A stretch of DNA of 64,000 nucleotides, from positions 136 through 64,135 of the forward strand of contig CAWACN010000023.1 of assembly GCA_963780525.1 (NCBI GenBank). Reading direction: 5' to 3'. Position 1 is the first letter of the stretch, and the number at the start of each line of letters is the position of its first letter. Of this stretch, positions 27,747 through 59,106 are shown piece by piece. Origin of the DNA: an uncultured Acidimicrobiaceae bacterium. GTDB taxonomy: Bacteria > Actinomycetota > Acidimicrobiia > Acidimicrobiales > RAAP-2. The notes beneath the pieces are model-generated. The model had not been told where the DNA came from. It ran no database searches and saw nothing but the letters and a program-made list of their open reading frames with translations. Position numbers and translations under genes: made by a program.

Positions 27747-28524
27747 TCAGCGGTACTGCGTCTCCGACTTGTCCCTCGGCGCCGGCGGGTTCGGCGGGTA
27801 GTTGCCGATCAGCGTGTACGAGAAGCCGTTCTGCAGGGCGGCGGTCCGGGTCAGGTCGAGCGACTCCCAGATGGCCCGGATCGTTCCCTGAATGGCCTTG
27901 GGGTTGCGTCGCGCGATCGACAAGCGCGATCTCACGGGCCCGGTCGCGGAGGGCGTCGCGCGTCACGACTTCGGTGACGAGGCCGAGACGCAGCGCCGTC
28001 TCCGCGGTAATGCGTTCCTCGTTCCCCATCAATGCCCAGCGGAGCACATCGCCGAGCGGCACCCCGCGGTGGAGCATGCCGACCGGCTCGAGCGAACTCA
28101 CAATGCCGACGTTGGCATGGGGATCGAAGAACAGGGCGTCCTCGGAGCAGATGATGATGTCCGACTCGTTCAAGAAGTACTGGGCCCCCCCGGCGCAGAA
28201 CCCGTGAACGGCGGTCACCACCGGCTTCCACACCTTGTGGTGCAGCTTCGGGCTGAGGCTTTCGCCGGGGTCGAAGCTGTTCCAGGTGTTCTCCTTCATG
28301 AACCACAGGTCGCCGCCACCGATGTCGACGCCGGTGCAGAAGGCGCGGTCGCCGTTGGCCTGGAGCACGACGCAATAGATGTCGTCCGTCTCCCGGACGG
28401 TCTCCCAGGCCCACTGCATGTCGGCGGCCATGGCGTTGTTGAACGAGTTCAGGTTGTCCGGCCGGTTCAGCGTGATGGTCGCAATGTTGTCGGCAACCTC
28501 GAACAGGATGGTCTCGCGGTCCAT
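27747..28524 (-). pseudogene. enoyl-CoA hydratase/isomerase, apparent +1 frameshift at 27921-27924
   Basis: MDRETILFEVADNIATITLNRPDNLNSF...AFCTGVDI...GFCAGGAQYFLNESD runs to ...DRAREIAL in the frame of ORF 27733..29475. The C-terminus SIARRNPKAIQGTIRAIWESLDL... is in ORF 27747..27935. The junction reads gcg CTTG tcg. Confidence 0.8.
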
Positions 28525-28555
28525 GCATCCCCCTGGCGGAGTGGTCGGTAGGAAT

Positions 28556-28571
28556 AAAGAGTATCCTCTTT
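28556..28571. promoter_or_regulatory. 16-bp box AAAGAGTATCCTCTTT (reverse complement of AAAGAGGATACTCTTT)
   Basis: It has perfect 6-bp arms. It lies between the divergent crotonase (start 28524) and SDR (start 28693) genes. It shares a 14-mer with the box at 32482. Confidence 0.55.
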
Positions 28572-28692
28572 GTGCGCCGCGGCCCGGTTTGCGGCCGGGG
28601 CACGCGGCCGACAGCATCACACACGACCAATCGACTACAGACAAGCCGACGCCGCTGGCAGCCGGCGTCGGAACAATGGAGAGGAACACTTC

Positions 28693-29451
28693 GTGGAGAT
28701 CCAGGGCAAGAAAGCCGTCATCGTCGGTGGCGCGTCGGGCATGGCCAAGGCGTCGGCCGAGCTGCTCCGCCAAAAAGGTGCCGACATCGCCATCCTCGAC
28801 CTGCCGAACACCGCCGGCGCCGAAGTCGCCAAGGAGCTCGGAGGCACCTTCCACGAGGTCAACATTCTGGACGAAGCCCAGACCGAATCGGCACTGGCCG
28901 ACGCCGTCGACGCGCTCGGCGGTCTGCACATCGCGGTGAACACCGCCGGCGGAGGCGCCGCCAAGCGCACGCTCAGCAAGGACGGCCCGCACCCGCTGGA
29001 CACCTTCCGCCAGACCATTGAGCTGAACCTGATCGGCACGTTCAACCTCAACCGCCTGCAGGCCTTCCACATGTCGACCAACGAGCCCGAAGACGGCGAG
29101 CGCGGCGTCATGATCGACACCGCCTCCATCGCCGCCTACGAAGGGCAGATCGGGCAGGTGGCCTACGCGGCAGCCAAGTCCGGCATCGTCGGCATGGTCT
29201 TCACCATGGCGCGCGACCTCGGGAGCCTGGGCATCCGGGCCATGGCCATCGCGCCGAGCCTCTTCGCCACCGGACTCACGGAGGGAATTCCGGACGAATT
29301 CGCGGCGACCCTGACCAAAGACGCCGCATTCCCCAAGCGGCTGGGCAGGCCCGAGGAGTACGGGAAGCTGGCCGTGGCGATCGTCGAGAACCCGATGCTC
29401 AACGGGCTCTGCATCCGCCTCGACGCCGGCACCCGCTTCGCTCCCAAGTAA
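28693..29451 (+). CDS. SDR family 3-hydroxyacyl-CoA dehydrogenase-like oxidoreductase
   Basis: It carries KKAVIVGGASGMAKA and the YAAAKSG catalytic motif. The GTG at 28693 is preceded by GGAGAGGAA. Confidence 0.88.
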   Translation: MEIQGKKAVIVGGASGMAKASAELLRQKGADIAILDLPNTAGAEVAKELGGTFHEVNILDEAQTESALADAVDALGGLHIAVNTAGGGAAKRTLSKDGPHPLDTFRQTIELNLIGTFNLNRLQAFHMSTNEPEDGERGVMIDTASIAAYEGQIGQVAYAAAKSGIVGMVFTMARDLGSLGIRAMAIAPSLFATGLTEGIPDEFAATLTKDAAFPKRLGRPEEYGKLAVAIVENPMLNGLCIRLDAGTRFAPK

Positions 29452-29474
29452 GCGCGCAAAGGGGCGGGCGCACA

Positions 29475-30536
29475 ATGTCGCCGGTGCGGTCGGTCGACCT
29501 GCGGATCGATGTCACGGACGCAGCCGGGCTGGGTGAGCCGGCCCACATTGCGCTCACCGTCACCGCGCCGGACGCGCTTCCGCCTGTTCCTGTCGTCTGC
29601 TTCGCCAAACCGGGGGCGGGTTACAGCCGCGGCTACTACACCGAGGACCTGCCCGGACCGGGGCGCGGTGCCCAGGCCACCTGGCATGCCGAACGCGGGT
29701 GGATCTTCGTCTCGGTCGACCATCTCGGTGTGGGCGACAGCTCGCTGCACGATCCCGAGCGGCTGACGTTCGCACCCGTCATCGCAGCGAGTCAGGCCGC
29801 CGAAGCCGAAGTGCGGCAGAGGCTGGCGGCGGGCACCCTGATGGACACGCTGGACCCCGTGGCGGACTTCCTCACGGTCGGGATCGGACAGTCGATGGGT
29901 GGGGCCTTCACCATCGTGCAGCAAGGGCGGCACCACGGATACGACGGTGTCGCCATTCTCGGCTACAGCCCGTTGCGGACGCAGCCGACGACGGGCCCCG
30001 GACAGCCACCGCTCCCGCTTCCCTGGGTGCCGCGCGACGCGCAGCTGTCCGACGGCGTCTTCACCAACGGGCCGGCACTGGCTGAGCTTCCGAACGCTGA
30101 TCCGGCGGCCTTTGCAGAGGCGGGGGAAGCGCTGCCGATGGCGTGGGGCTTCCACTACGACGACGTCGATCCGGCGGTCGTGCGGCGCGACATGGAGGAC
30201 TATCCCGCCCGGCACGGCGACCTCCCGCCGTGGGGATCGGCCACCATCCCGGCTACGGCGGTGCTTTGGTGTCTCGCACCGGGCTCCACGCTGGCGGAAG
30301 CCGCGGCAATCCGTGCACCCGTCCTCGTGGCGTTGGGCGAGCGTGACGTCCTGGTCGATCCACGCGGTGAGCCGCGTGCCTACGAGTCGGCTGCGAGTGT
30401 CGACCTCTTCGTCTGCCCGCGCATGGCGCACATGCACAACTTTGCGGGCACACGTGAGCTGTTCTGGCGCCGTTTGGAGACGTGGGCCGATTGGGTCCGT
30501 GCGGTCCGGGATGCCGGCCCGGACGCCGCGGGCTGA
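29475..30536 (+). CDS. alpha/beta hydrolase
   Basis: 353 aa with the nucleophile elbow GIGQSMGG and normal composition. Confidence 0.8.
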   Translation: MSPVRSVDLRIDVTDAAGLGEPAHIALTVTAPDALPPVPVVCFAKPGAGYSRGYYTEDLPGPGRGAQATWHAERGWIFVSVDHLGVGDSSLHDPERLTFAPVIAASQAAEAEVRQRLAAGTLMDTLDPVADFLTVGIGQSMGGAFTIVQQGRHHGYDGVAILGYSPLRTQPTTGPGQPPLPLPWVPRDAQLSDGVFTNGPALAELPNADPAAFAEAGEALPMAWGFHYDDVDPAVVRRDMEDYPARHGDLPPWGSATIPATAVLWCLAPGSTLAEAAAIRAPVLVALGERDVLVDPRGEPRAYESAASVDLFVCPRMAHMHNFAGTRELFWRRLETWADWVRAVRDAGPDAAG

Positions 30537-30564
30537 CGGGCTCGCGCTCTCCGGCGCACCCGGG

Positions 30565-31422
30565 CTAAGTCGCCAGCCGGAACTGATAGGACGCGGCGGT
30601 CACCGGGCGGTCGCCGTCGCCCTCGTCGTGCAGGATGATCCGCACCGCCACCGCACCGTCGGACCCCACGACCGGTTCGGCATCGGCCCGGAACGGACCA
30701 ACCTTGCCCCGGGCGAGGAACATCACGTGCGAGGACAGGGCCTCGAGGCGATCCCTCTCGAAGGCGTGCGCCTCGGCGGCCCGGTCGAAGGCCGCCGTCT
30801 CCAACAAGACGAACTGGGGGCCGAGGTGCAGGGCCGCGTCGGGAGAGGCGACCTCCGACGACAGCACCGGCAATGCCCAATGACCGTCGGGACGGCGAGT
30901 GGCCCCGAAGACCTGCCACAGCGGCGGCAGGTCGGGACCGTCCTCGACCACAATCGGGTCCACCTGCATTTTGTCGAGCCCGGCCGGCGGTGTGCCGATG
31001 CTGACTCCCTGGCCCTGCGTCAGCGCCAGCACCCGGCCCGGCTCGTCCGCGTCGACAATGCGCGAGCGGCTGTAGCCCATCTGACGCCCGTGCTTGAGGA
31101 CCTCCGACACCACCGCAATGCGCCTGACGTCCCGCCCGGGGTCGAGGACCTGGCAAGAGTGGATCACAGGGTTGGGCACGGCCTCCCGGTCACTCCGGCC
31201 GCCGCCCTCGGGCGCGGCGATGCCCAGCACCGCGAGCAGGATGGCGCCCGTCGGAGTCCGCATGTCGCGGCGCAGCGTGACGGTGTCGTCGGTCGGCCCG
31301 AGGTCCATGGACGACCAGCGCCGCCCGATGTAGCGGTAGCTCAGCAAGCCGCCCCAGCGCCGGCGGAGTTCGGCCGCGTACGCCTCGGGATCATTGAGCA
31401 GCTCCCTGATGTCCCTCGGCAT
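30565..31422 (-). CDS. hypothetical protein (possibly hot-dog-fold, thioesterase-like)
   Basis: 285 aa from the ATG at 31422 (MPRDIRELLNDPEAYAAELRRRWG...). Composition is normal, whereas the opposite-strand ORF 29899..31437 is Arg/His/Gly-rich shadow. It is divergent from tesB. The fold guess is weak. Confidence 0.65.
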   Translation of the reverse strand: MPRDIRELLNDPEAYAAELRRRWGGLLSYRYIGRRWSSMDLGPTDDTVTLRRDMRTPTGAILLAVLGIAAPEGGGRSDREAVPNPVIHSCQVLDPGRDVRRIAVVSEVLKHGRQMGYSRSRIVDADEPGRVLALTQGQGVSIGTPPAGLDKMQVDPIVVEDGPDLPPLWQVFGATRRPDGHWALPVLSSEVASPDAALHLGPQFVLLETAAFDRAAEAHAFERDRLEALSSHVMFLARGKVGPFRADAEPVVGSDGAVAVRIILHDEGDGDRPVTAASYQFRLAT

Positions 31423-31491
31423 CACCGGCCTGTCTAGCGCAGAAGGCCGCGGACCGGTCCACTTGCCCCGGGGCCGCCGCCCTGCACACTC

Positions 31492-32403
31492 TTGAGCATG
31501 GACTTGGCCGCGGACCTGCGCTCGCTGCTCACTCTGGAGCGGGTGGACAAGGACCTCTTCCGGGGGCGCAACGCCAACTACGGCCCCCGCCGCACCCTCT
31601 TCGGCGGGCAGGTGGCGGCGCAGTGCCTGCTGGCCGCCGCGGCAACCGTCGAGGCCGGGCGGCTGCCGCACTCCTTCCACGGCTACTTCCTCCGAGCGGG
31701 TCGCAGCGACATCCCGGTGATCCTGGAGGTCGATCGTGATCGGGACGGGCGCTCGTTCTCGGCCCGCCGTGTCGTGGCCATTCAGGACGGCGAGGTCATC
31801 TTCTCCATGGTCACCTCGTTCCAGGTGGAGACCGAAGATGGCGCCCGGTTCGACGACGCCCCACGCCGGGAGGTGCCCACGCCAGAGGACACGACGCTCG
31901 GTGGTTGGAATCCCCTCCTCGACGTGCGCCCCGTCACGCCGACCGACTTCTTGAAGGGCGTGTTCACCGACTGCCTGTGGGTCAAGTCGGCCGTCTCCCT
32001 CGGTGATGATCCGCTGGTGCACAGAGCCGGACTGACCTACCTGTCCGACCTGGGGACCGGCTTCGGTCAGCAGGACCGCAAGCTGATCGGACGGGGCGGC
32101 CCTTCCATCGACCACTCCGTCTGGTTCCAGGAGGACATCCGCGCCGACGAGTGGGTACTCGTCGACCTGCGACCGGTGAAGGCCCGCAGCGCACGGGGGG
32201 CGTACCACGGCTCGCTGCGGGATCGCGACGGCGCGCTGGGTGCCACGATCTACCAGGAGCAGCTGCTCATCCCGGGTTCGGCGGCCGACCTGCGGGCGGG
32301 CGTGTTCCCCGACGACGAGGACGTGGCCGTCGAGAATGGCGACCCCGAGGACGTGGCCGAACGTGCGGCGGCGCGGGGAGAGCATCCTGCGGCGGCTGAG
32401 TGA
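31492..32403 (+). CDS. tesB: acyl-CoA thioesterase II
   Basis: It shows the double hot-dog TesB pattern: LLTLERVDKDLFRG...LFGGQVAAQCLLAAAATV...HSFHGYFLRAG...GRSFSARRVVAIQDGEVIFSMVTSFQ. Confidence 0.85.
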   Translation: MSMDLAADLRSLLTLERVDKDLFRGRNANYGPRRTLFGGQVAAQCLLAAAATVEAGRLPHSFHGYFLRAGRSDIPVILEVDRDRDGRSFSARRVVAIQDGEVIFSMVTSFQVETEDGARFDDAPRREVPTPEDTTLGGWNPLLDVRPVTPTDFLKGVFTDCLWVKSAVSLGDDPLVHRAGLTYLSDLGTGFGQQDRKLIGRGGPSIDHSVWFQEDIRADEWVLVDLRPVKARSARGAYHGSLRDRDGALGATIYQEQLLIPGSAADLRAGVFPDDEDVAVENGDPEDVAERAAARGEHPAAAE

Positions 32404-32481
32404 CCGAGTGACCGAGCGTCGGAACGACCTTTGGCGCGGCGCCGCTCTGCGGTGGCAGGGTGGCGTGGTTCGCTACCGACA

Positions 32482-32497
32482 ATAGAGGATACTCTTT
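32482..32497. promoter_or_regulatory. 16-bp box ATAGAGGATACTCTTT abutting a start codon
   Basis: It ends 5 nt before ATG 32503. The embedded TACTCT ends 7 nt before the ATG, which suggests a leaderless mRNA. Confidence 0.55.
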
Positions 32498-32502
32498 CTG
32501 CC

Positions 32503-34660
32503 ATGCCGATCGCCATCACCGAAGACCACCAGACCCTGGGCCAGACGGCCTCGGACTTCCTGGCCAAGCACGATTCCCGAGGAGCAGCCCGGGCCCTGCT
32601 GGAGGCCGGGACCGAAGCCCTGCCCTCGTTCTGGGGCGACATCGCCGAGCTGGGATGGCTGGGGCTGCACCTGCCCGAGGAGCACGGCGGATCGGGCTTC
32701 GGCCTGCCCGAGCTGGTCGTCGTTGTCGAGGAGCTCGGGCGGGCCCTGACGCCCGGACCCTTCATCCCGACCGTGATCGCCAGCGCGGTCATTGACACTG
32801 CCGGCTCCGACGAGCTGGCCGCCCGGTTGCTGCCCGGCTTGGCCGATGGGTCCGTGGTGGCCGGCGTCGCCCTCGAAGGGGACGTCACCGTGCGCGACGG
32901 TCGGGCCGCCGGGACGGTGCCGGCGGTGTTGGGTGGTGGCCTCGCCCACATCCTCGTCCTGCCGGTGGGGGACGACGTCATCGTCGTCGACGTCTCGGCC
33001 GGCGGGGTGCAGGTGGAGGTGCCACCCAACCTCGACCCCACGCGGCGTTCGGCCCGCGTCAGCCTCGACGGCGCACCGGCCGAAGTGATCGCCGGCGGAA
33101 GGCGGGCCCTGGTCGACCTCGCTCGCCTCATTGTGGCCGCCGAAGCGACCGGTGTCGCCAACGAATGCACCGAGCAGGCGGCCGCCTACGCCAAGGTGCG
33201 CGTGCAGTTCGGCCGGCCCATCGCGACCTTCCAAGCCGTCAAGCACCACTGCGCCAACATGCTGGTGGCCTCCGAGCTGGCGACCGGGGCCGTGTGGGAC
33301 GCGGCCCGGGCGGCGAGCGAGGGCGCCGACCAGTTCACCTACGCCGCTGCCATCGCCGCCGCGCTGGCCCTCGCGGCGGGTGACGAGTGCGCCAACCTCA
33401 ACACCCAGGTGCACGGCGGCATCGCGATCACGTGGGAGCACGACGCGCACCTGTATCTCCGCCGGGCGACCGCACTCGAGGCGTTCGTCGACGGCGAGGC
33501 GGCCGCCCGTGAGATCACCGACCTGGTCCGCCAAGGAGCACGGCGCACGCGCACCATCGACCTGCCACCCGAGGCCGAGCCCATGCGCGACGAGGTGCGA
33601 GCCTTCGCGCAGCGTGTGCACGGCCTCGACGCCGCGGCGCAGCGCGACGCCATGATCGAGACCGGGCTACGTCATGCCGCACTGGCCCCTGCCCTGGGGC
33701 CGCAACGCCGGCGCGGTCGAGCAACTCGTCATTGAGCAGGAGTTCGCGGCGGCCGACGTGAAGCGTCCGCAGTACTCCATCACCGGATGGGTCATTCTGA
33801 CGCTGATCCAGAACGCCACGAAGGATCAGGTCGAGCGCTGGGTCCTCCCCGCACTGCGCCAGGACGTCATTTGGTGCCAGCTGTTCAGCGAACCCGAGGC
33901 CGGGAGCGACGCCGCCGGTGTCAGGACGCGCGGGACGCGGGTGGACGGCGGCTGGCTGGTGAACGGCCAGAAGGTCTGGACGAGCGGGGCGCACTATGCC
34001 AGCTTCGGCTTGGCCACCATCCGCACCGATCCCGAGGCGCCGAAGCACGAAGGCATCACGACCATGGTGATCGACATGCATGCCGAAGGTGTGGAGGTGC
34101 GTCCGTTGCGCATGACCACGGGACAGTCGGAATTCAACGAGGTCTTCTTCAACGACGTGTTCGTACCGGACGACGATGTCGTCGGCCCCGTGAACGGTGG
34201 CTGGACGGTGGCGCGAGCCACACTCGGCAACGAGAGCGTCTCCATCGGCGGCGGTCAGGGCGGCCAGACCACGCCGGCCGGCGTGATCATCGGGCCGTAC
34301 GATGCCCACCCGGAGCGCCTGCCGGGCGGAGCCGGGCGGATCGGTCGCTACATAGCCCAGACCGAGGCCGTGACACTGCTCAACATGCGCACCGCCCACC
34401 GCGCGCTCATCGGTGGTGGCCCCGGCCCCGAGGGCAACGTCACCAAGCTGGTGCTGACCGAGATCGGCCACGAGGCGACGGCCATCACCGTCGCGGTGAG
34501 TGGGTCCGGGACCCTGTTCAGCGACGGTGCCGGCGCAATGGTGTCGGCCATGGTGCTCATGCACCGGGGCATGTCGATCGCCGGCGGCACGTCCGAGATC
34601 AAACGCAACCAGATCGGCGAGCGCATCCTCGGCCTGCCGCGGGACCCGCTCATCAACTAG
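32503..34660 (+). pseudogene. two-domain (fused alpha/beta-type) acyl-CoA dehydrogenase, apparent +1 frameshift at 33664-33667
   Basis: Domain 1 is in the frame of ORF 32431..33735 (MPIAITEDHQTLGQTASDF...VHGGIAITWEHDAHLYLRRA...PMRDEVRAFAQRVHGLDAAAQRDAMIETG). Domain 2 is in ORF 33674..34660 (YVMPHWPLPWGRNAG...WCQLFSEPEAGSD...GGTSEIKRNQIGERILGLPRD). No stop separates the domains. The junction is accGGGctac. A paralog reads EAGY at the same point. Confidence 0.8.
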
Positions 34661-34683
34661 CGGTCTCGCTCTACGCTCGGTCC

Positions 34684-34944
34684 GTGTCCTCGCGGCTCGA
34701 CAAGTCCTGGAAGGTGCTGGCCAGCCCGTCGACGCCCAGCGTGGACCGTTGTGTCGACATCTTCCTCAGACCCGACGGCACCTTCGGATTCGAGGAGTTC
34801 CGACGGGATCCTGAAGACCGCGGCGCCTGGACGCCGATGACCTACTTCTCGGGCCGGGAATACGACACCGAGGCGGAAGCCCTCGCTGCAGCCAGGACAC
34901 ACGTGCCCTGGCTGGGCGAAGTGCTCGATGCCGGCATGCGTTGA
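34684..34944 (+). CDS. small hypothetical protein (86 aa)
   Basis: The GTG at 34684 opens VSSRLDKSWKVLASPSTPSVDRCVDIFLRPDGTFGFEEFRRDPEDRGAWTPMTYF.... Composition is reasonable. No family is recognised. Confidence 0.5.
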   Translation: MSSRLDKSWKVLASPSTPSVDRCVDIFLRPDGTFGFEEFRRDPEDRGAWTPMTYFSGREYDTEAEALAAARTHVPWLGEVLDAGMR

Positions 34945-34954
34945 ATCACTCTGG

Positions 34955-35418
34955 TTACTGGCCCCCGAAAGTCGTCTCGGGGGAGCGCCAGTCAGTCGAT
35001 ACGAACCGGTGCGCAATAAGCCAGCGGTCGCCGACGGGGACGAGACGGTCGCGGTAGCGGCCCATGTGATCGAGGCCGATCTCGGTGATCACCGTGAAAT
35101 AGCTGGCGACGACCGCCTCGTTCGGTTGGAGGGATTCGAACCTCACATTCGTCACGTTGTGGCGCACGATCCTGCGCCGCGCCCGGCGTCGCGCTTCTTC
35201 GCCGCTTCCTGCTGCGCCTGCACGGCTACAGTCGCGCCGCCGAAACGCGCCTTGATGGCCTCTCGGCCCTGCAGCGGCTCTGCATTGCGGATTTCGAGGA
35301 CACCGTCCACGCAGAAGGCCCCGGCGAAGTCGTCGAGGAGGTAGCGATCGCCGCTGTGCGTGTACTGCGCCAGCGTGTCGCGACATGCCTCGCGGGCGGC
35401 GAGCTCCCAGAGTTCCAC
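34955..35418 (-). pseudogene. SnoaL-like/NTF2-like protein, apparent -1 frameshift between 35173 and 35236
   Basis: The N-terminal part MELWELAAREACRDTLAQYTHSGDRYLLDDFAGAFCVDGVLEI...EAIKARFGG is in ORF 35152..35418. The C-terminal part IVRHNVTNVRFESLQPNEAVVASYFTVITEIGLDHMGRYRDRLVPVGDRWLIAHRF is at the end of ORF 34955..35752. Confidence 0.7.
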
Positions 35419-35542
35419 GGCGGCGTCGGCTCCTTCTCGCTCGTCTTGGCGGACCTGGCGATCCTACGCAGGGCCAGCAGGAGCCGGCACCTTCGTGACG
35501 GCGTCCCCCGACGCACCGGCCACCTGCTCCTAAAGTGCGCCT

Positions 35543-37489
35543 ATGGCTGACGCTGATGCCCACGGCAGCCGGGCCTCCGGCGTCTGGAACCTCCTGATCG
35601 GCCCACCCAAGTCGGCGCGGGGTGCAGGGAAGGATCGGATAACACCCGTCGAGGGCCTGTCGGCCCTGTCGCTCGACGCCCTGACGTCCGTCGCCTACGG
35701 CCCCGAGGCCATCATCCTCGTGCTGGCTGTGGCCGGCGCCGGGGCGCTCCATCTGGTCCTGCCCATCACCATCGCCATCGTGTTGCTGCTGGCGATCCTG
35801 GTGTTCTCGTACCGCCAGGTCATCGATGCCTATCCGATGGGCGGCGGGGCCTATGCCGTCTCACGGGCCAACCTCGGCGCAAACGTCAGCCTCGTCGCCG
35901 CCGCGTCGCTGGTCGTCGACTACACGCTGACGGTCGCCGTCTCCATCGCCGCTGGTGTGGCGTCGCTGCAGTCCGCCTTCCCGAGCCTGGACGGGGCCAC
36001 GATCCCACTCTGTCTCGGGATCCTCCTTTTCATCATGGTGCTGAACCTGCGCGGCCTCGGAGAGACGGCGCGGGCCTTCTTGCTCCCGACTCTCCTGTTC
36101 ATCGTCGGCTTGCTGGCCATCATCGCGATCGGGCTCATCCACCCCCTCGGGCTCAACGAGTCGCAGCTCGGCACGTCCCAATTGCCCACCACGAGCTTCA
36201 AGGCCGTGACATTCCTGTTGATCCTGAAAGCCTTCTCGGCCGGGTGCAGCGCCCTGACCGGGGTGGAGGCGATCGCCAACGGCACGCCGCTGTTCCGGGA
36301 ACCCCGGACCGTGCGGGCCAAGCGGACCGAAATGCTGCTCGGCCTCATCCTCGGCGCCATGCTGCTCGGACTCGCGGTCCTGGCCAAGCGCTGGCAGATC
36401 GGCCCCCGCACGGGCCAGACGGTGCTGAGTCAGATCATGGCCATGTCCATCGGACGGGGTTTGGCCTACTACATCATTTCGATCACCATCACCGTCGTCC
36501 TCGCCCTGGCGGCCAACACGTCCTTCGGTGGGTTGCCCGTCCTGGCCAGCCTGGTGGCGCGCGACGACTACCTGCCCCACCTCTTCACCATTCGCGGCGA
36601 CCGGCAGACCTTCGGCAACGGAATCTTCGTCCTGACGATCATGGCGGGCGCGCTGCTCGTCGCCGTCGACGGCAACACCAACACCCTCATCCCGCTCTTC
36701 GCCATCGGGGTGTTCATCGGCTTCACGCTTTCCCAGACCGGGCTGGTCGTGCACTGGTGGCGCGAGCGTCCGGCCCACTGGCGGCGCCGCGCCTCCATCA
36801 ACGGCTTCGGCGCGGTGATCACGGCCATCGCCACCGTCGTCTTCCTCGTCTCCAAGTTCACCGAGGGCGCCTGGGTCGTCGTCATCGCCATCCCCGCCTT
36901 CATCTGGCTCTTCCTGCGCATTCACGCCTACTACGAACGCTCCGCCAAGGAGCTTCGTTTCGACGAGAACCCCGGCCTGCCCGAGCCCAAGCGCACCATT
37001 GTGGTGGTGCCGGTCAACCGGATCTCCCGCCTCACCGAGCACGCGCTGAGCGAGGCCGAGTCACTCGGTCAGGAAGTCATCGCCGTGACCGTCATTCTCG
37101 AGGGGGCCGACGAGGGCGCCGCCGCCAAGTCCGAGCATTTCTTCGACCACTGGGACAGGTGGAACTGCGGCATACCGCTGAAGGTGCTGCACACCGAGTA
37201 CGCCTCCGTCGTGCAGCCGATCGTGGCCTTCATCGACAAGCTGCGCGCCGAACACCCCGACGACCAACTCGTTGTCCTGATCCCCATTGTGCGACCCTCG
37301 AAGCTGCGCTACCGGATCCTGCACAACCAGATCGACCTGGTGCTCTCGGCCGCACTGCGGAACAGGGACGACGTGGTGGTGGCCCGGGTCACGGTGCCAC
37401 TGGAGCGGCCGCAGCCCCAGCCCGAAACGGAGGCGACGACCGGGCAACACCCCGCGTCCGGGCCAGGGCCGGGAACCAGCTCGACCTGA
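35543..37489 (+). CDS. APC family permease with C-terminal cytoplasmic domain
   Basis: 648 aa with about 12 hydrophobic helices (LDALTSVAYGPEAIILVLAVAG...) followed by a soluble tail of about 190 aa. TAAAGT ends 6 nt before the ATG, so the mRNA is probably leaderless. Confidence 0.85.
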   Translation: MADADAHGSRASGVWNLLIGPPKSARGAGKDRITPVEGLSALSLDALTSVAYGPEAIILVLAVAGAGALHLVLPITIAIVLLLAILVFSYRQVIDAYPMGGGAYAVSRANLGANVSLVAAASLVVDYTLTVAVSIAAGVASLQSAFPSLDGATIPLCLGILLFIMVLNLRGLGETARAFLLPTLLFIVGLLAIIAIGLIHPLGLNESQLGTSQLPTTSFKAVTFLLILKAFSAGCSALTGVEAIANGTPLFREPRTVRAKRTEMLLGLILGAMLLGLAVLAKRWQIGPRTGQTVLSQIMAMSIGRGLAYYIISITITVVLALAANTSFGGLPVLASLVARDDYLPHLFTIRGDRQTFGNGIFVLTIMAGALLVAVDGNTNTLIPLFAIGVFIGFTLSQTGLVVHWWRERPAHWRRRASINGFGAVITAIATVVFLVSKFTEGAWVVVIAIPAFIWLFLRIHAYYERSAKELRFDENPGLPEPKRTIVVVPVNRISRLTEHALSEAESLGQEVIAVTVILEGADEGAAAKSEHFFDHWDRWNCGIPLKVLHTEYASVVQPIVAFIDKLRAEHPDDQLVVLIPIVRPSKLRYRILHNQIDLVLSAALRNRDDVVVARVTVPLERPQPQPETEATTGQHPASGPGPGTSST

Positions 37490-49897: not shown

Positions 49898-49946
49898 GGT
49901 GTACCCATCTCTCGACGGCAGAGAGCAGATCGGGGGCATCGAACAC

Positions 49947-51152
49947 ATGGCTGGCCCGTTGCAGGGAGTCCGCGTCGTGGAGGTGGCCAACTGGACCTTC
50001 GTGCCGGCGGCCGGCGCCGTGCTGGCCGACCTCGGGGCCGACGTCATCAAGGTGGAACCGCCAAACGGGGACCCGCAGCGGGCGCTGCTCAACATGCTCA
50101 ACCTGGGCGGAGGCGGTCCCAACCCTTTCATCGAGATCCCGAACCGGGGCAAGCGCAGCGTCACCTGCGACCTGAGCACCGAAGGCGGGCGCGAGGCCCT
50201 GGCTGCCATCGTCCGCACAGCGGACGTGTTCGTGACGTCGAACCTGGCGCCCATCCGCGCCAAGCTGCGGATCGACGTCGACGACATCCGGGCGATCAAC
50301 CCCGACATCATCTACGTGCGCGGCACCGGCTGGGGTCCCGAGGGCCCGATGGCCGACGTCGGTGGTTACGACATGGCCTGCGGGTGGGCCAGCAGCGGCA
50401 TGGCGTTCAAAATGACGCCGGGCGGCATCGAGCCACTCCCCCAACCCCCTGCCTTCTTCGATCTCCAAGGCGCCAACACGATCGCCGGCGCCATCGGCTT
50501 CGCGCTCTTCAAGCGCTCCAACACGGGCGAGACATCGGTCGTCGACGTGTCACTGCTCCATGTGGGCATGTGGGCGCTGTCGCCCGACATCACCGGCAGT
50601 CCGTACATGGGCGACATCGCGTCGTACGGCGATCGCACCCTCGCACCGAACCCGCTCGTCAACGGCTACGCCACCAAGGATGACCGCTGGATCTACTTCG
50701 TCTGCCTGCAGCCTGACCGCTTCTGGGACGAGTTCTGCACGCTCCTCGGTCGGCCGGATCTGATCACCGATGCCCGCTACGACAGCGCCGCCCACCGCTA
50801 CGAGAACCGTTCGGACCTCGTCCACGAGCTCGACGCGGTCTTCAGCACGCTGACGCTCGACGAGGTCAAGGAGAAGTTCACCGGCTTCAGTGGCGTATGG
50901 GCCCCGGTGCTGCGCCCGTCCGAGCTCCACACCCATCCCCAGGTCGATGCCAACGGCTTCCTGCCCTCGGTGACGGCACACGACGGCAGCGACTACCGCA
51001 TTGTGGCGGCGCCGGCCCACTTCTCGGGCCACACCACCGCGCCACCCGGGCCCGCCCCCGAGTTGGGTCAGCACACCGAAGAGGTCCTTCTCGAGGCAGG
51101 GCTCGACTGGGACGCCATCACGTCGCTGCGTGAAGGCGGAGGACTGGGCTAG
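49947..51152 (+). CDS. family III CoA-transferase (CaiB/BaiF)
   Basis: It contains MAGPLQGVRVVEVANWTFVPAAGAVLADLGADVIKVEPPNGDP and GTGWGPEGPMADVGGYD. Confidence 0.9.
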   Translation: MAGPLQGVRVVEVANWTFVPAAGAVLADLGADVIKVEPPNGDPQRALLNMLNLGGGGPNPFIEIPNRGKRSVTCDLSTEGGREALAAIVRTADVFVTSNLAPIRAKLRIDVDDIRAINPDIIYVRGTGWGPEGPMADVGGYDMACGWASSGMAFKMTPGGIEPLPQPPAFFDLQGANTIAGAIGFALFKRSNTGETSVVDVSLLHVGMWALSPDITGSPYMGDIASYGDRTLAPNPLVNGYATKDDRWIYFVCLQPDRFWDEFCTLLGRPDLITDARYDSAAHRYENRSDLVHELDAVFSTLTLDEVKEKFTGFSGVWAPVLRPSELHTHPQVDANGFLPSVTAHDGSDYRIVAAPAHFSGHTTAPPGPAPELGQHTEEVLLEAGLDWDAITSLREGGGLG

Positions 51153-51158
51153 GCGCCT

Positions 51159-52100
51159 TCAGTCGGCAAGCTCGTCGACCAGGCCCCAGTCGAGCGCCCT
51201 CTCGGCGTCGATCGCCTGGCCGGAGAAGGCCAGCCAGGCCGTGCGCAAACGGCCGATCCGGTGCGTCAGGCTGACCGTCCCCCCTGCGCCGGGCACGAGG
51301 CCGAGGCCGATCTCGGGCAGCGCGATCTGGGTGTCCGGTGCGGCGACGACCCAGTCGGTGAAGGCGGCGAGCTCAATGCCCGAACCCATGCACGCGCCGT
51401 GCACATACGTCACGGTCGACTTCTCCAGCTCCGACAGCGTCCGCCCGACGCTGCGCTCCAACCGGATGACATGCGCCGTTGCCGGATCCGACCTGCTGCC
51501 GAACTCGTCGAGATCGCCGCCGGCGCAGAAGGCCGTCCCCTCCCCTCGCAGCTCCACCCGTGCCACGTCACTCGAAGCGGCAGCCAACGTGAGCGCCTCG
51601 TTCAGCTCGTCCCGCATCCTCGCGTCGAGAGCATTCAATCGTTCCGGACGGGTCAGCGTGATCCGGAAGACCTGGTCATCCCGCTCCACCTTCACTCGTT
51701 GTCCCGACCCGGTCACGACCTCGGCTCGGGCAGGGCGACTGGCCCGCCACGCCGCGAACTCCGGCCCGGACTGGAGGACCGAGTACGCCGCCGACTCGGC
51801 CACGAGACCCTCACCCACCGAGAGGCGGTCCTGTGCGCGCAGCAACAGCGCCAGTGTCGTCGCCGTGATGGGGTGCCCGGCGACGTTCGCCGCGATCCGG
51901 TCGAGCGCCTGGTCGCCCTCGTCGACCGCGACATCACACAGGTCGAGCCAGCGCTCGGCGACCGAACCGTGGGTCACGCCGACCACCACAAACGGCAGGC
52001 TCGCCCGGTTCTTCTGCGCTGTGTCACCGGGGTCCGCCAGGCCGTCGTGCAGATCGACCAGGACGGCGGCGGTTCGCTCGGGAGTGATCGCGCTGCGCAA
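51159..52100 (-). CDS. enoyl-CoA hydratase/isomerase family protein with ~125-aa N-terminal extension
   Basis: The crotonase core is VFRITLTRPERLNAL...AFCAGGDL...GACMGSGIELAAFTD. The TTG at 52100 is the first canonical start after an in-frame TAA. Confidence 0.8.
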   Translation of the reverse strand: MRSAITPERTAAVLVDLHDGLADPGDTAQKNRASLPFVVVGVTHGSVAERWLDLCDVAVDEGDQALDRIAANVAGHPITATTLALLLRAQDRLSVGEGLVAESAAYSVLQSGPEFAAWRASRPARAEVVTGSGQRVKVERDDQVFRITLTRPERLNALDARMRDELNEALTLAAASSDVARVELRGEGTAFCAGGDLDEFGSRSDPATAHVIRLERSVGRTLSELEKSTVTYVHGACMGSGIELAAFTDWVVAAPDTQIALPEIGLGLVPGAGGTVSLTHRIGRLRTAWLAFSGQAIDAERALDWGLVDELAD

Positions 52101-52161
52101 CTCAGCGAGCAGGGCTTCGGCGCTCAGAGGTTCGAGGATCGCGAGACGTTACCCTGCCGTC

Positions 52162-53375
52162 GTGGACGACCTGCCGGTGGAGCGATGGGCCAACAGCGGC
52201 GCCATGGCCCTGACCGGGCTGCCCGACGAGCCGCTCGGACCCCCTGCCGGCCTGGTCGAAGGTGTTGAACGGTTAGGCCGGTCGTTTCCCGGGCTCGACA
52301 CGCTTGCCCTCTTGGGCGAGCGCGCCGCGCTCATGGGGCTGTGGCGGAGGGGCGGGACGAGCTGTGGCGGCAGTTGCCGCCTATTGCCCTGCGCCGACGG
52401 GTTCATGGCCGTTTCGCTTCCCCGCGACGAGGACATGGAGATGGTTCCCGCCTGGCTCGAGCTCGACACCGCGCCCTCCTCCGTGCCCGCCTCCTGGTCC
52501 GCCGTGGCCACCGCCCTGCGTCGAGCGCGATCCCGCGCGTCCTGCGCGAACGAGCCATGCTGCTCGGGCTCCCGGTCGCTCGCGTCGGTGAAGCGGCCCC
52601 ACCCGATCGGACCGGCGGCACGCAACGCGCCGCCGTGATCCCGGCTCGGCTCGGAGAAGCCCCGCCGCGACCCGACATCGTCGGCGCTGTCGTCATCGAC
52701 CTGTCGGCACTGTGGGCCGGCCCCCTCTGCGGCGACCTTCTGGCCGGAGCCGGCGCCTCCGTCGTCAAGGTGGAGTCGACGCAACGACCCGACGGGGCCC
52801 GTCGCGGCGCCCGCGCTTTCTATGACCTCATGAACGGTCGAAAGCGGTCGGTCGCGCTCGACCTGCAGGCGCCGCAAGGAGTTCGCATCCTCCACGAGCT
52901 CGTCCGACGAGCGGATGTCGTCATCGAGGCGAGCCGTCCGCGCGCCCTGTCGCAGCTCGGCCTCGACGCCCGCGACACCGTCACCGACGGCGGTCCCCAG
53001 GTCTGGATCTCCATCACCGGCTACGGCCGCTCCGGCGAAGACGGCCACCGCATTGCGTTCGGCGACGACGCCGCCGCGGCCGGCGGCCTCGTGACCCGGA
53101 CCGCTGCAGGTCCACTCTTCTGCGCCGACGCCATCGCCGACCCGCTCACCGGTCTCACGGCGGCGGCGGCCTGCGTCCACAAGCTCCGCTCGGGTGGACG
53201 CTGGCTCCTCGACGTCTCCATGGCCGCCGTCAGTGCCGGGCTCAGCGGGCCCACCGTTCCGGTACCCACCGGACTCGCCGCCACCGAGCCGCAGGCGCGC
53301 CCCGTTGTCAAGCGGGCGCCGGAACTCGGCGCCGACACGGCCCACGTCTTGGCCGAGCTCGGCATCGAAGCCTGA
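52162..53375 (+). pseudogene. family III CoA-transferase-like protein with N-terminal extension, apparent -1 frameshift near 52516-52540
   Basis: The N-terminal part VDDLPVERWANSGAMALTGLPDEP...ASWSAVATAL is in the frame of ORF 51001..52638. The rest, RVLRERAMLLGLPVARVGE...VVIDLSALWAGPLCGDLLAGAGASVVKVES...ISITGYGRSG, is in ORF 52341..53375. The start is uncertain (GTG 52162, GTG 52177 or ATG 52204). Confidence 0.7.
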
Positions 53376-53382
53376 GCCCGTG

Positions 53383-54903
53383 TCAGCTCCAGGCCAGGTT
53401 CTTCACCTCCGTGAAGTCCTCCAGCCCGTGACGGCCCCACTCACGGCCCAGCCCAGACTGCTTGAAGCCACCAAAGGCCCCGCTCTGCCCGATACCAGTG
53501 AACGTCGAACCCCACCCGGGGCCCTGCCCACCGCCCGGACCGACGTCGGCCAGCGGCTCGGTGCCGACCTTCTGCACCGTGACGAGGCCGGCGCGGATCT
53601 GACGGGCGACGTTGAAGGCCCGTGAGTCCGAGGTGGACACGACGCCGCCACCCAGGCCGTAGATGGAGTCGTTGGCCAACCGCACCGCGTCCTCGTCCGA
53701 GCCCGAGTACGGCACCACCGTGAGCACCGGCCCGAAGATCTCCTCCTGGGCGATGCGCAGGTCATTGCCGCTCACGAAAACCGTCGGCTCGAAGTAGAAG
53801 CCCTTGTCCATCCCCTCGGGCCGCTTCCCCCCGCACAGCAGCTCGGCGCCCTGCTCCAGTCCCGAAGCCACGTAGCCCTCGACCCGTGCGCGCTGCTGCT
53901 CACGGATGAGCGGGCCCAATACGGTGCCCTCAGCACGAGGGTCACCGATTGTGATCATCGGCCGCATCGCCTCCAGGCCATCCTTGTAGGCGTCGAGCAG
54001 GTGTTCGGGCAACAGGATCCGCGTGTGGATCACGCAGCCCTGGCCGCAGTGCATCAGGACCTGCCCGAAGCCGATGGAGCGGGCGTAGTCCTCGCCCACG
54101 TCACCGAGCACCACCGTGGCGCTCTTGCCGCCGAGTTCGAGTTGGACCTTCTTCACCGTCGCGGCGGCGGACCCCATGATGCGGCGCCCGGTCGCCGTCG
54201 AACCCGTGAAGGTGACCATGTCGACCATTGGGTTCGACGTCAGCTCGTCGCCCACCTCGCCGTGCCCCGTGATCACGTTGAGCACGCCGGGCGGAATGCC
54301 CGCCTCCGCCGCCGCCTCCGCGATCATCATGGCGTCGAGTGGCGTCCACGGGTGCGGCTTGAGGACCACCGTGCAGCCGACGGCCAGGGCCGGGGCCACC
54401 TTGACGATGTTCAGCATGAAGGGAAAGTTGAACGGCGTGATGGCCGCCACCACGCCGATCGGCTCGCGCACAATGGCACTGCCGCCCAATCCCGTCGGGC
54501 CGCCGGTCGGCATGGCGTTCTCGACCCAGGGAAAAGAGTGCTCGACCAGTGCCGCGTTCGACCGCAGCATCCCGATCGAACCCGCCCCTTGGACGGCGTC
54601 GGTGAGGAACCCGGTCGATCCGGTCTCGGCGACGATCAGTTCGCGCAGATCCCCAGCCCGGCCCTCGAGGATCTCGGCCATCGCCACCAACCGGGCGGCG
54701 CGCTCCGCCGGCTTCATGTAGGGCCAGGGCCCTTCGTCGAAGGCCCGGCGCGCCGCTTCGACGGCCCGCAGCGCGGTCTTGGTCGAGGCTTCGGGGACGG
54801 ACCCGATCACCTCCTCGGTGGCGGGGTCCACCACCTCAATGGAGCCCGACGCCCCTTCCGACGTCCACGCCCCGTCGATGAACAGTTCGTAGTTCCAGTT
54901 CAT
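53383..54903 (-). CDS. aldehyde dehydrogenase (NAD(P)+)
   Basis: It shows MNWNYELFIDGAWT...VREPIGVVAAITPFNFP...LELGGKSATVV...HCGQGCVIHTR...EEIFGPVL. Confidence 0.92.
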   Translation of the reverse strand: MNWNYELFIDGAWTSEGASGSIEVVDPATEEVIGSVPEASTKTALRAVEAARRAFDEGPWPYMKPAERAARLVAMAEILEGRAGDLRELIVAETGSTGFLTDAVQGAGSIGMLRSNAALVEHSFPWVENAMPTGGPTGLGGSAIVREPIGVVAAITPFNFPFMLNIVKVAPALAVGCTVVLKPHPWTPLDAMMIAEAAAEAGIPPGVLNVITGHGEVGDELTSNPMVDMVTFTGSTATGRRIMGSAAATVKKVQLELGGKSATVVLGDVGEDYARSIGFGQVLMHCGQGCVIHTRILLPEHLLDAYKDGLEAMRPMITIGDPRAEGTVLGPLIREQQRARVEGYVASGLEQGAELLCGGKRPEGMDKGFYFEPTVFVSGNDLRIAQEEIFGPVLTVVPYSGSDEDAVRLANDSIYGLGGGVVSTSDSRAFNVARQIRAGLVTVQKVGTEPLADVGPGGGQGPGWGSTFTGIGQSGAFGGFKQSGLGREWGRHGLEDFTEVKNLAWS

Positions 54904-54944
54904 CCGATCCTCTCCATGTCCATGTCGCCCCCAACCCACTCCGC

Positions 54945-56131
54945 TCACACGTCCCAGCTCAACTCGAGCCGGTCGATCCCGTACAGACCACCACCGTGCT
55001 CGGTGACGTCGACCCCGGGCGTCAGCCAATAGGTCGGAATCACCCGGTGCCATTCCTCCAACGCCACTCGCAGCTCCCGCCGGGCAAGATGCGACCCGAG
55101 ACAACGATGCGGTCCCGCTCCGAACGCGACATGGTTGTTCGCGGCACGATCGAACCGCACCGTCGCTGCGTCGTCGCCGAACACGGCGGGGTCACGGGTC
55201 GCGCCGCACAAGGGAGTGAACACCATGTCGCCCTTCTTCAGCGGGCAGCCGTGGAAGTCGGCGTCCTGCATCACTTTGCGCGAAGGCGCCACGAAGGCGA
55301 ACTGACGCAGGAACTCTTCCACTGCCGCCGGCACGACCGACGCGTCGGATGCGAGCACCTGACGGTCATCCGGATGTGTCGCCAAATGCCAGAAGGCGTA
55401 GCTCAGTTGGATCGAGACGGTGTCGAGCCCGGCCATGAACATCAGAAGGCACCACGAGAGCAGGTCTTCGTGCGCAATGGGCTGCCCATCAATGCGCCAC
55501 GACAGCGAGGCCGACAACAGGTCGTCTGCCGGCGCCCGCCGTTTTTCCTCGAGCAACTCGGCGAAGTACCCCATGACGGCCAGCATCGCCTCGAGCGCAC
55601 CCGAGCGTTCCGGGTCGTCGCCCCCAGCCGGGTGGAGGATCGCATGCTCCCAGGCCAGGAACTGCTCCAACCCGTCGGCGGGCAAGCCCATCAACTCCAT
55701 GAAGATCGACGTCGGATAGCGCCATGCAAAGTCGCGCAGGAAGTCGCAATGACCGGTACTCCTGCGATCGCCCCGATCAATTCGACGCAACGCTCCCTGA
55801 CCTTGTCCTCCAACCGTTCCATGGCTCGGGGTGCGAAGTGCGGCGCCAGCAATTGCCGCCAGACGGTGTGCTCGGGCGGGTCGAGCATCTCGGGGATCCA
55901 CCTGTACGGAGGGTCGGGGTCGTGGACGGTCACCACCGTGCTGGAGAAGACGTCCGGATGCTGCAGCGCCTCCCGGATCAGCGCTGCGTCCGTGAAGACC
56001 CAGAAGCCGTTCCCATAGGTGCTGCGCACGAAGGGGTGCTCGGCCCGCAGGCCGTCGATCTCCTTGGCGTGCGACAGGACGGGCCCGGTGGTGGCCTCGT
56101 TGAAGGCGCAGACCGGGTACCCCTCGTCCAT
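54945..56131 (-). pseudogene. cytochrome P450, apparent -1 frameshift near 55757-55762
   Basis: The N-terminal part (ORF 55691..56158) MDEGYPVCAFNE...LDPPEHTVWRQLLAPHF...VELIGAIAG continues in ORF 54945..56444 as STGHCDFLRDFAWRYPTSIFMELMGLP...VEEFLRQ...FGAGPHRCLGSHLA. The ATG at 56131 is preceded by GGGAAGGGG. Confidence 0.8.
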
Positions 56132-56147
56132 TCCCACCCCTTCCCCT

Positions 56148-56163
56148 ATTGAGGACACTCTGT
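56148..56163. promoter_or_regulatory. degenerate box ATTGAGGACACTCTGT
   Basis: It matches the AAAGAGGATACTCTTT form at 12/16 positions. It lies in the divergent gap between the P450 (56131) and the aldehyde dehydrogenase (56284). Confidence 0.35.
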
Positions 56164-56283
56164 TGTGCCAGATATCGACCTTCGGGCGGAGCCGCGCCAG
56201 TCCGATCCGGCCGATCCCGGCGGGTGTGACGTCCGACCGCCCCGATTACGGTGACGTTGATCGACCTCACGATTGGAGACGCC

Positions 56284-57775
56284 ATGACCCTCGCCAACGA
56301 CATCAGTGCACCCCTGCGCCACGCGGACCGATTCTTCATCGGCGGGGAGTGGGTCACGCCCTCCTCAAAAGCCGTCATCGACGTCATCGATTCCGCCACC
56401 GAGGAACTCTTCTTCAGCGTCGCCGAGGCGCAGGAAGCCGACATGGCCCGCGCCGTCGGTGCGGCCCGTCAGGCCTTCGACCAGGGGCCCTGGCCGCGCC
56501 TGACCCACGCGCAGCGGGCTGAGTACCTGCGCGCCATCTCGACCGAGCTGCAGAAGAGGGCCGAGGACATCGGCCAGATCTGGCCGCGGGAGTCCGGCGT
56601 CCTCCACTTCATCGCAACGGCATCCGTCGCCGGGGCGGCGGGGACCTACGACTACTACGCCGGCCTGGCCGACACCTTCCCCTTCGAAGAGGAGGCCAAG
56701 CCGAGCATGGGCGGCCAGTTCGGGCTGCTTGGTGCGCGAGCCCGTCGGCGTCGTGGGCGCGATCATCCCGTGGAACGCCCCGCTCAGCCTCATCACCTAC
56801 AAAATCGCCCCCGCTCTGTTGGCCGGCTGCACCGTCATCCTCAAGGCCTCGCCCGAGGCACCCGGCGAGGCCTACGTGATGGCGGAGGTCGCGGAGGCGG
56901 TGGGGCTTCCGCCCGGCGTCCTCAACGTCGTGACGGCCGACCGGGAGGTGTCCGAGCTCCTGGTGCGCGACCCGCGCGTGGACAAAATCACCTTCACCGG
57001 GTCGACCGCCGCCGGACGGAGGATCGCGTCCATCTGTGGTGAGCGGATTGCCCGCTGCACCCTTGAGCTCGGGGGCAAGTCCGCCGCGGTCATCCTCGAC
57101 GACATGGACCTGGCTACGGCGGCCACCACGCTCGCCCGCGCCGAATGCTTCCTCTCCGGTCAGGTCTGCTCGTCACTGACGCGGATCGTCGTCACGCAGA
57201 ATCGTCACGACGAGCTCCTCGAGGCACTGGCGGGCACGTTCTCCCAGGTCCAGGTGGGCAATCCCTTCGACGCCGAGACGCAGATGGGGCCCTTGGTGGC
57301 GGAACGGCAGCGCGACCGGGTCGAGGGCTACATCGCCAAGGGACTCGCAGAAGGCGCCACCCTGGCCACGGGCGGTGGACGGCCGGCCCACCTCGACCGT
57401 GGCTGGTTCATTGAGCCGACCGTCTTCGGCAACGTCGCCAACACGTCGACGATCGCGCAGGAGGAGATCTTCGGGCCGGTGCTGAGCGTGATCCCGGCGA
57501 AGGACGAAGCGGACGCCATCGCCATCGCCAACGACACGATCTACGGGCTCAACGCGTCGGTGTTCACCAACGACGTCGAACGGGCCCGGGACGTGGCCCG
57601 CCAGCTCCGGTCCGGCACAGTCGGCCACAACGCATTCCGTACGGACTTCGGGATCTCGTTCGGCGGCTTCAAGCAATCTGGCATCGGGCGTGAGGGTGGG
57701 ACCGAGGGGTTGCTTCCCTTCCTTGAGACGAAGACCGTGATCCTGGAGGGCCGGCCAGCCCCGTACGGCGACTGA
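56284..57775 (+). pseudogene. aldehyde dehydrogenase, apparent +1 frameshift at 56728-56731
   Basis: MTLANDISAPLRHADRFFIGGEWV...PSMGGQFGLL is in the frame of ORF 56251..57042. It continues VREPVGVVGAIIPWNAP...LELGGKSAAVI...EEIFGPVL in ORF 56729..57775. The junction reads ctg CTTG gtg. Confidence 0.85.
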
Positions 57776-57878
57776 CCCGGGCGGCTGCCGGCTCCGGTTG
57801 GCGCACTGACACTCGCGTCAGGGAAGCTCCCCAGGTCGATCGCCGGCCTGCGGGCGGCACGCAAGGGGAGGATGCACG

Positions 57879-59106
57879 TTGTCAGAGATCATGAAGGGTG
57901 TTCGCATCCTCGAGGTCGCCGAGCACACCTTCGTGCCGGCCGCCTCGGCCATCCTGGCCGACTGGGGCGCCGAGGTCATCAAGGTCGAGCATCCCGAACG
58001 CGGCGACGCCATGCGCGGGCTCGCCTCCAGCGGCGTCATGCCCTCCATGGGAGCCGTGCACGTGCTCCTCGAGCACTCCAACCGCGGCAAGAAGAGCATC
58101 GGCATCGACGTCAGCACGGAGAAAGGCCTCGACCTCATCTACCGGCTGGCCGCCACCTGCGACGTCTTCTTGACCAACAAGGTGCCCGCGGTCAGGAAGA
58201 AGCTGCAGATCGAGCTCGAGGACATCAAGGCCCACAACCCCAACATCATCTACGTGGCCGGCACCGGCGGCGGCGAGCGCGGGCCCGAGGCTGACCGCGG
58301 CGGCTACGACTTCTTGAGTTACTGGTGCCGGGCGGGAAGCGCCATGGGGACGACGCCCACCGACGTCGACTACCTGGCCGGGCAGCCCGGGCCGGGCTAC
58401 GGGGACTCCATCGGCGGCATGACGATCGCCGGCGGCATCATGGGCGCGCTCTTCCACCGTGAGCGCACCGGAGAGGCCCTCCCGCTCGACGTCTCGCTTG
58501 CTCGGCGTGGGCATGTGGGCCATGAGCCCTGCCATTGCGCTGTCGCTCCAGCTCGACATGCCCTGGCGTCCCGGTCCCAGCAAGGGGGGCGGCATCAACC
58601 TCCCGAACCCGCTCGTCGGCACCTACCTGACCCAGGACAACCGGTTCCTGGCCTTTTCGTGTCTGCAGGGGTTTCGCTACTGGCCCAGCGCCTGCCGGGT
58701 CATCGGTCGCGAGGAATTGATCACCGACGAGCGTTTCTCCTCCCACGAGCAGCTGGCCGCCAATGCCGCGGCGGCACGCGCCATCCTCAAGGAGACCTTC
58801 GAGTCGGCGCCCCTGAGCGAGTGGCGCGAGCGCCTCGCCGACTTCGAGGGCCAGTGGGCCGTCGCCCAGGACAGCATTGAGGTCACCAAGGACGTGCAGG
58901 TCGAGGCCAACGGCTACCTCGGCCAGACCGCCACCGCCGATGGCACGCCCTTCACCCTCGTGACGACGCCGGTGCAGTTCTCCGGCGTGCCGTCCGCCCC
59001 CAAGCGGTCACCGGAGTTCAACGAGCACTGCGAGGAGATCCTCGCCGACATCGACTGCAGCGAGGAGGAGATGATCGAGCTCAAGGTGGCCGGGGTGCTC
59101 GCCTAA
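57879..59106 (+). pseudogene. family III CoA-transferase, apparent +1 frameshift at 58497-58500
   Basis: VRILEVAEHTFVPAASAILADWGAEVIKVEHPERGD...GGYD...GEALPLDVSL is in ORF 57879..58880. It continues LGVGMWAMSPAIALS... in ORF 58459..59106. Paralogs read VVDVSLLHVGMWALSP. The junction reads tcg CTTG ctc. The TTG start is preceded by AAGGGGAGGA. Confidence 0.85.

Follow-up and report, generated by a model that had tools for sequence, protein, structure and literature searches.

The window considered here, the whole 64,000-nucleotide stretch of DNA that was analysed (G000:C23:136-64135), comes from an uncultured Acidimicrobiaceae bacterium with a genome assembly, G000, of 3.42 Mb in 46 contigs, 75% complete and about 68% GC. 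Three of its genes hold one base too many, and in each of them the reading frame has to advance by one at the pentamer GCTTG, where four bases stand in place of a single Leu codon. The first encodes an enoyl-CoA hydratase/isomerase, or crotonase (27747..28524, minus strand; PF00378, E = 1.4e-29), with the junction gcg CTTG tcg at 27924-27921. The second encodes an aldehyde dehydrogenase (56284..57775, plus strand), with PF00171 positions 1-108 and 124-461 matched on its two halves and the junction ctg CTTG gtg at 56728-56731. The third encodes a family III CoA-transferase (57879..59106, plus strand), with PF02515 matched at E = 1.5e-73 by the read-through protein P0002 and the junction tcg CTTG ctc at 58497-58500; its closest named relatives are metagenome bins of Acidimicrobiaceae and Acidimicrobiales. 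The original prediction had put three +1 junctions on the same pentamer at these positions, and re-reading the bases in the sequence bears it out.

Taking CTTG as a single Leu restores the frame in all three genes, giving REIALSIARRNP in the crotonase, QFGLLVREPVG in the aldehyde dehydrogenase and LDVSLLGVGMW in the CoA-transferase. Because CTTG is the union of CTG and TTG, skipping either base yields Leu. When proteins from the related genome G102 are aligned, they occupy two frames, with the change from one to the other at each of the three CTTG sites; for the crotonase the ortholog is an intact 258-residue protein that aligns across both frames. A CoA-transferase paralog in the window reads SVVDVSLLHVGMWALSP at about 50544. 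The pentamer is also read normally, as had been pointed out, in a double CoA-transferase, with GGG CTT GTG in frame at 5343..5351 (plus strand) inside an intact 798-residue open reading frame (3738-6134, plus strand). That frame apparently consists of two fused CoA-transferase III domains, and a long G102 open reading frame corresponds to it.

Several strains are co-assembled in G000, as can be seen from contig ends that overlap other contigs at 93-98% identity (at least 15 overlaps, about 89 kb, with 120 isolated single-base indels). These overlapping contigs are usable as internal controls, and because of the overlaps together with the indel load we take the assembly to be probably of long-read origin. 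One of the strain copies, contig C34 (G000:C34:14649-23835), overlaps positions 55597-64000 of the window at 96.8-96.9% identity; at the two junctions it covers, those of the aldehyde dehydrogenase and the CoA-transferase, it reads CTG. Its CoA-transferase is a single open frame; its aldehyde dehydrogenase contains a separate extra base at another place. Contigs from 4 public runs (X1-X4) were compared over 55600-59800, and two X2 contigs that carry the entire depth, together with one X3 contig, are each one base shorter than the window at the CoA-transferase junction.

Ortholog pattern searches, with the length of the junction left variable, were made in 135 genomes of the genus. For the CoA-transferase, 38 of 44 matches have a three-base Leu codon (CTG 20, TTG 9, CTC 6, CTA 2, CTT 1) and CTTG occurs in the window's contig, C23, only. 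For the aldehyde dehydrogenase, three bases stand at the junction in 67 of 70 matches, the exceptions being C23 itself, a 24-nt match at a G131 locus that was rejected since the locus has no similarity to aldehyde dehydrogenases, and one unchecked 25-nt match. For the crotonase, 52 of 59 matches have a three-base codon, 4 have a +1, and 3 were set aside as other genes: G063:C10 has no crotonase similarity, and the G083 and G149 loci carry a one-frame paralog at 36% identity. The off-length matches in G023, G130, G011:C24 and G092 look like other genes. The extra base is thus absent from the strain copy at two sites, from orthologs at all three and from independent contigs at the CoA-transferase site.

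To see how common such breaks are, we aligned G000 to G102 at 84% identity, using 2.26 Mb of the latter's roughly 4.2 Mb and covering 1.476 Mb of the 3.42 Mb of G000; the reading frame served to polarise isolated single-base indels. The resolved breaks in G000 comprise 222 of +1 and 20 of -1, an 11-fold difference, set beside 37 and 8 in G102. The +1 rate is uniform across 17 contigs (chi-squared p = 0.33), C23 being typical, and the most frequent junction words are GAGC, GTCG, ACGC, GACG, GCGC, CTCG, CTTG, CCCG and ACCG. An intrinsic codon hidden Markov model was rejected for counting, as it recovers the junctions yet fuses overlapping genes. The relative G022 was likewise rejected as census reference for being too noisy, with 108 +1 breaks of its own in 119 kb, and was retained as a replicate. 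This single-contig relative (G022:C1, L031-L044) thus has about 0.9 resolved +1 per kb, six times the 0.15 per kb of G000.

To the +1 junctions we fitted a likelihood mixture with three components (random insertion, duplication of a base, merging of alleles); its rates of single-nucleotide polymorphism (SNP) came from 1250 coding SNPs that distinguish strain copies. Merging receives a weight of 0.87 (bootstrap 0.76-0.97), random insertion 0.13 and duplication 0.00, for a log-likelihood gain of 72.7. When calibrated on simulated random, duplication and merge sets, the same mixture returns merge weights of 0.07, 0.00 and 0.99; in the other assemblies the merge weight is 0.81 (G102) and 0.86 (G022). 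With the strain copy as an exact reference, the inserted base is a synonymous allele of its neighbour at 20 of 25 events (chance 0.42, p = 1e-4), these 25 being the usable ones among 39 resolved +1, with 56 more unresolved. CTG/TTG makes up 37 of the 1250 within-species coding SNPs (3.0%), of which 20 follow a shared G and 9 a shared C. Merged pairs also correlate with the SNP spectrum (rho 0.77), a result discarded as support because codon usage confounds it. A genome-wide +1 load with an allele-union signature is shown for this assembly.

The explanation we favour, at a probability of roughly 0.8, is that the three CTTG junctions are strain-mixed consensus errors in which CTG and TTG alleles were written side by side. 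Where strains differ by a SNP, a consensus that tolerates indels would write both bases in succession, and a Leu codon polymorphic for CTG and TTG, as we suppose all three to be, would come out as CTTG. The same process would account for words such as CTCG, GCGC, ACCG and GTCG at hundreds of other codons. In the consensus, one deletion per read can beat a mismatch charged to half of the reads, and toy arithmetic suggests that, with the alleles at close to 50:50, merging would occur once the probability of a local deletion is above about 0.03-0.06. Such a threshold would favour error-prone contexts; a CGCT context would raise the merge rate and leave (C)GCTTG over-represented. The merging step itself we infer. 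Frameshift errors from indels are known in long-read metagenome assemblies and, according to PMC13087279, are commoner in nanopore soil assemblies than in HiFi; they are also the subject of proovframe (10.1101/2021.08.23.457338). Like these, our junctions are single-base indels, scattered through the genome, that disrupt ordinary genes. Unlike these, they include 11 times as many insertions as deletions, and most of the insertions are unions of two synonymous alleles, not homopolymer extensions. No description of the allele-union signature was found in the literature searched, which is no proof of its being unpublished; what is accessible of PMC5632298 does not describe allele merging.

Several observations weigh against strain merging. 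The TTG allele is not directly seen in this species at the three sites. Of the 516 isolated indels in the census, 229 could not be resolved and were left out, and a crude count of synonymous junction words is weak (181 of 222, with a null of 74-77%). The public runs each share at most 0.20 of words with the compared region, the aldehyde dehydrogenase junction is bridged by none of the pieces listed, and the crotonase lies outside 55600-59800. A few junctions have no plausible allele pair, as where ATC AGC GCG is written ATCG AGC GCG. A merge model that knows only codons predicts too little of the pentamer, GCTTG being found 10 times, by a looser count, with 2.3 expected, CGCTTG 9 with 0.7 and CCTTG 0 with 1.5. 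Finally, the crotonase has a +1 at the same codon in four assemblies, as CTTG in C23 and G003, CTCG in G113:C8 and TTCG in G062. This recurrence is the strongest point in favour of the original prediction. Each of the words is a union of two codons found at that position in relatives, and the G003, G062 and G113:C8 crotonases each contain further extra bases, with a second G113 copy that is intact and has TTG.

The enrichment of the pentamer among junctions genome-wide holds, modestly. In-frame G|CTTG occurs at 9 of the 222 resolved +1 junctions, whereas 2500 simulations give a share of 0.36% for a random base and 0.88% for a duplicated base; leaving out the three sites through which the question arose, 6 of 219 remain (p = 0.0002 versus random insertion, 0.014 versus duplication). 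The excess belongs to a wider error hot-spot in CGCT context that is also present in the two related assemblies. CGCT/AGCG lies near 48 junctions with 22.6 expected, CGCTCG is counted 20 times with 6.2 expected, and CGCTTG 10 with 1.3. Examples of the hot-spot are G000:C9:605059 and C1:2387. The CGCTCG junctions are on both strands in G000, G102 and G022, a few of them without a plausible allele pair. The CGCTTG junctions in G000 are all on the sense strand and in the Leu frame (8/8), as is the single distinct site that G102 and G022 each have; since 49% of CGCTG/CAGCG occurrences are outside the sense Leu frame, this has p = 0.005 (0.017 without two ascertained sites). An error bound to the motif regardless of strand and frame would fit CGCTCG, which is on both strands, and not CGCTTG. 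Context and polymorphism probably act together at CGCT sites.

That hot-spot speaks for the strongest rival, in which base-calling or polishing alone inserts the base at (C)GCTG, depending on sequence context; this needs no polymorphism and may come from an unmodelled DNA modification. It would also be an artefact, and we consider it rather unlikely. Besides the CGCT/AGCG excess and the presence of CGCTCG on both strands in three assemblies, it can draw on a precedent, namely the modification-mediated nanopore errors at GCAGC and GCTGG in Listeria that are reported in PMC10687267. Our junctions share with these the character of motif-centred consensus errors around GCTG/CAGC. They differ from them in that there is no single shared pentamer (the three sites diverge at the next base, as GCTGT, GCTGG and GCTGC), in the strand and frame dependence of CGCTTG, and in lacking a substitution signature. 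A duplicated base, moreover, gets no weight in the mixture.

The original prediction had suggested a possibly methylated k-mer, which would predict an excess of C>T at CGCTG on both strands. None is seen: CAG|CG goes to CAA at 55 of 397 sites versus 159 of 1106 in other CAG|C, and CG|CTG goes to TTG at 239 of 1419 versus 495 of 2778 in other G|CTG, and the methylated k-mer has no support. Among the three DNA methyltransferase families searched, the only match is to PF01555 (N6/N4), at G000:C32:34837-35526 on the plus strand, which the modification idea may draw on. No C5 methyltransferase was found, PF00145 and PF02384 being unmatched in the 75% complete genome. An undescribed genus-wide DNA modification at CGCT/AGCG that is visible as an error hot-spot seems to us improbable.

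Less probable still, to the point where we give it little credit, is that the insertions are genuine and have made pseudogenes in one strain. In its favour, the extra bases are there in the contig, and C34 could come from another strain, an intact one. Against this, loss of function does not account for 222 insertions beside 20 deletions at a rate even across contigs, nor for inserted bases that follow synonymous alleles, which mutation would not yield, and the same pattern is found in two other assemblies. The CoA-transferase family is broken in 5 of 56 long-contig loci of metagenome-assembled genomes, each time elsewhere in the gene, and in 0 of 24 loci from isolates or assemblies named as short-read; these are small numbers from best-match loci.

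The remaining rival is translational recoding, in which CUU is the site of a programmed +1 shift or CUUG is read as a quadruplet for Leu in the (C)G-CUU-G context. The CUU codon, the enrichment of the pentamer and the CTTG at the same crotonase codon in G003 speak for it. In prfB, according to PMC12421855, the +1 signal consists of a Shine-Dalgarno (SD)-like element and CTT TGA C, with CUU as the P-site codon. The junctions here share with prfB a +1 shift and CTT as the final codon of the zero frame. They are unlike it in having no CTTT run and no A-site stop at any of the three, no SD-like element and no conservation. The absence of an SD-like stimulator, which had been remarked on before, holds in that no contiguous SD was found upstream of the three junctions, where the duplex with the anti-SD 9-mer has -2.8, -5.7 and 0.0 kcal/mol. 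The codons that enter the A site after CTT are GTC, GGT and GCT, and the zero frame reaches its stops 63, 104 and 127 codons further on. In the Ty1 frameshift, CUU-AGG-C, CUU occupies the P site and a slowly decoded AGG the A site; CUU is common to both, and AGG has no counterpart at the junctions here. Slippage from CUU to UUG would, we reason, demand re-pairing of the tRNA at all three positions. As to conservation of the shift site, the CoA-transferase and aldehyde dehydrogenase junctions are in C23 only, and the crotonase one is in 4 of 56 ortholog matches, as three different words. The prfB gene of G000 is itself one open frame, as it is in all 2658 of the 2658 Actinomycetota surveyed in PMC12421855.

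Quadruplet decoding meets a further difficulty in the codons that are left alone. There are 89 aligned sites at which in-frame G|CTT|G is left intact, including 24 with CG|CTT|G, as against 9 junctions, and CTTG is not an obligatory quadruplet because the same code, forced throughout, breaks the aldehyde dehydrogenase at residue 260, where CTT G is in frame. The +1 suppressor tRNAs SufB2 and SufJ (10.1101/2020.12.31.424971, PMC4238358) offer a parallel in that four bases would give one residue; different here are the lack of an enlarged-loop tRNA-Leu, the reading of in-frame CTTG as a triplet elsewhere and the diversity of the junction words. The search for a tRNA-Leu with an 8-nt anticodon loop, proposed earlier, was run and yielded tRNAs with anticodons TAG, TAA, GAG, CAA and CAG, all with 7-nt loops, in the 75% complete genome. 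The tRNA-Leu(TAA) (G000:C8:67405-67481, minus strand) is 77 nt long and differs from the other four in the shortness of its variable arm, with a canonical loop; an ARAGORN tRNA-??? on C8 was rejected for its implausible fold. Given three-base codons in the strain copy, orthologs and independent contigs, we regard programmed frameshifting and quadruplet decoding as extremely improbable. For a lineage that really reads CTTG as one Leu in the (C)G-CUU-G context, by a stimulator-free +1 shift or by a quadruplet tRNA that was not assembled, there is the crotonase CTTG shared with G003, and we rate its chances as slight in the extreme.

The window has further junctions. The fourth one had been placed on GTTG (18352-18349, minus strand) in an ABC-2 permease gene (17719-18763, minus strand; PF12698/PF01061 on the 3' part), and this placement does not stand. 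Homologs in G102 and G022 read GAC xxx ACG TTG, which puts the extra base upstream, in GCGC at 18355..18358 (minus strand), within GAC GCGC ACG TTG AAG and combining GCG and GCC for Ala. The first inspection overlooked four more +1 junctions and a +2. These are GCGC or CCGG at 3034..3040 (plus strand), with the base absent in G022 and G102; GCTC, combining GCT and GCC for Ala, at 20138..20141 (minus strand), placed by homolog alignment; ACCG, combining ACC and ACG for Thr, at 33661..33664 (plus strand), with the base absent in G022, G102 and G045; and CAGC at 59248..59251 (plus strand), with the base absent in C34, G022, G102 and contigs of X2 and X4, bases within 59246-59249 being missing from the independent-run contigs. 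The net +2 is at 55757..55763 in a minus-strand gene near 54945-56143, where C34 is two bases shorter, X1 and X2 contigs are without 55760 and 55763, and the protein alignment changes frame. GCTTG thus accounts for 3 of 8 resolved single-base junctions on the contig. Two single-base differences from G102 at 52520 and 52536 are 16 nt apart, and the codon model calls a frame change there. Elsewhere in G000, long degenerate tandem repeats with units of a few hundred bases occur on C9 (about 180-199, 254-260 and 330-349 kb), C32 (12-18 kb) and C36 (158-171 kb), and probably encode large repetitive surface proteins.

Weighing these explanations together, we hold it nearly certain that the three junctions are an artefact of some kind. 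The alternative offered in the original prediction, a systematic sequencing or assembly indel, is in this sense upheld, with the extra base private to the C23 consensus and the enrichment modest; merged strain alleles, favoured in CGCT context, are a better description of it. If quadruplet decoding did occur naturally in genes of housekeeping metabolism, that would be a discovery of great weight, but the evidence favours an artefact. Four bases that stand for one conserved residue, with either skip synonymous, are the expected mark of merged alleles and are in that sense diagnostic, so that in strain-mixed assemblies calls of recoding or of pseudogenes need a prior check against strain-overlap contigs and orthologs. 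For the bacterium itself, strain merging would mean that the living cells carry intact genes.

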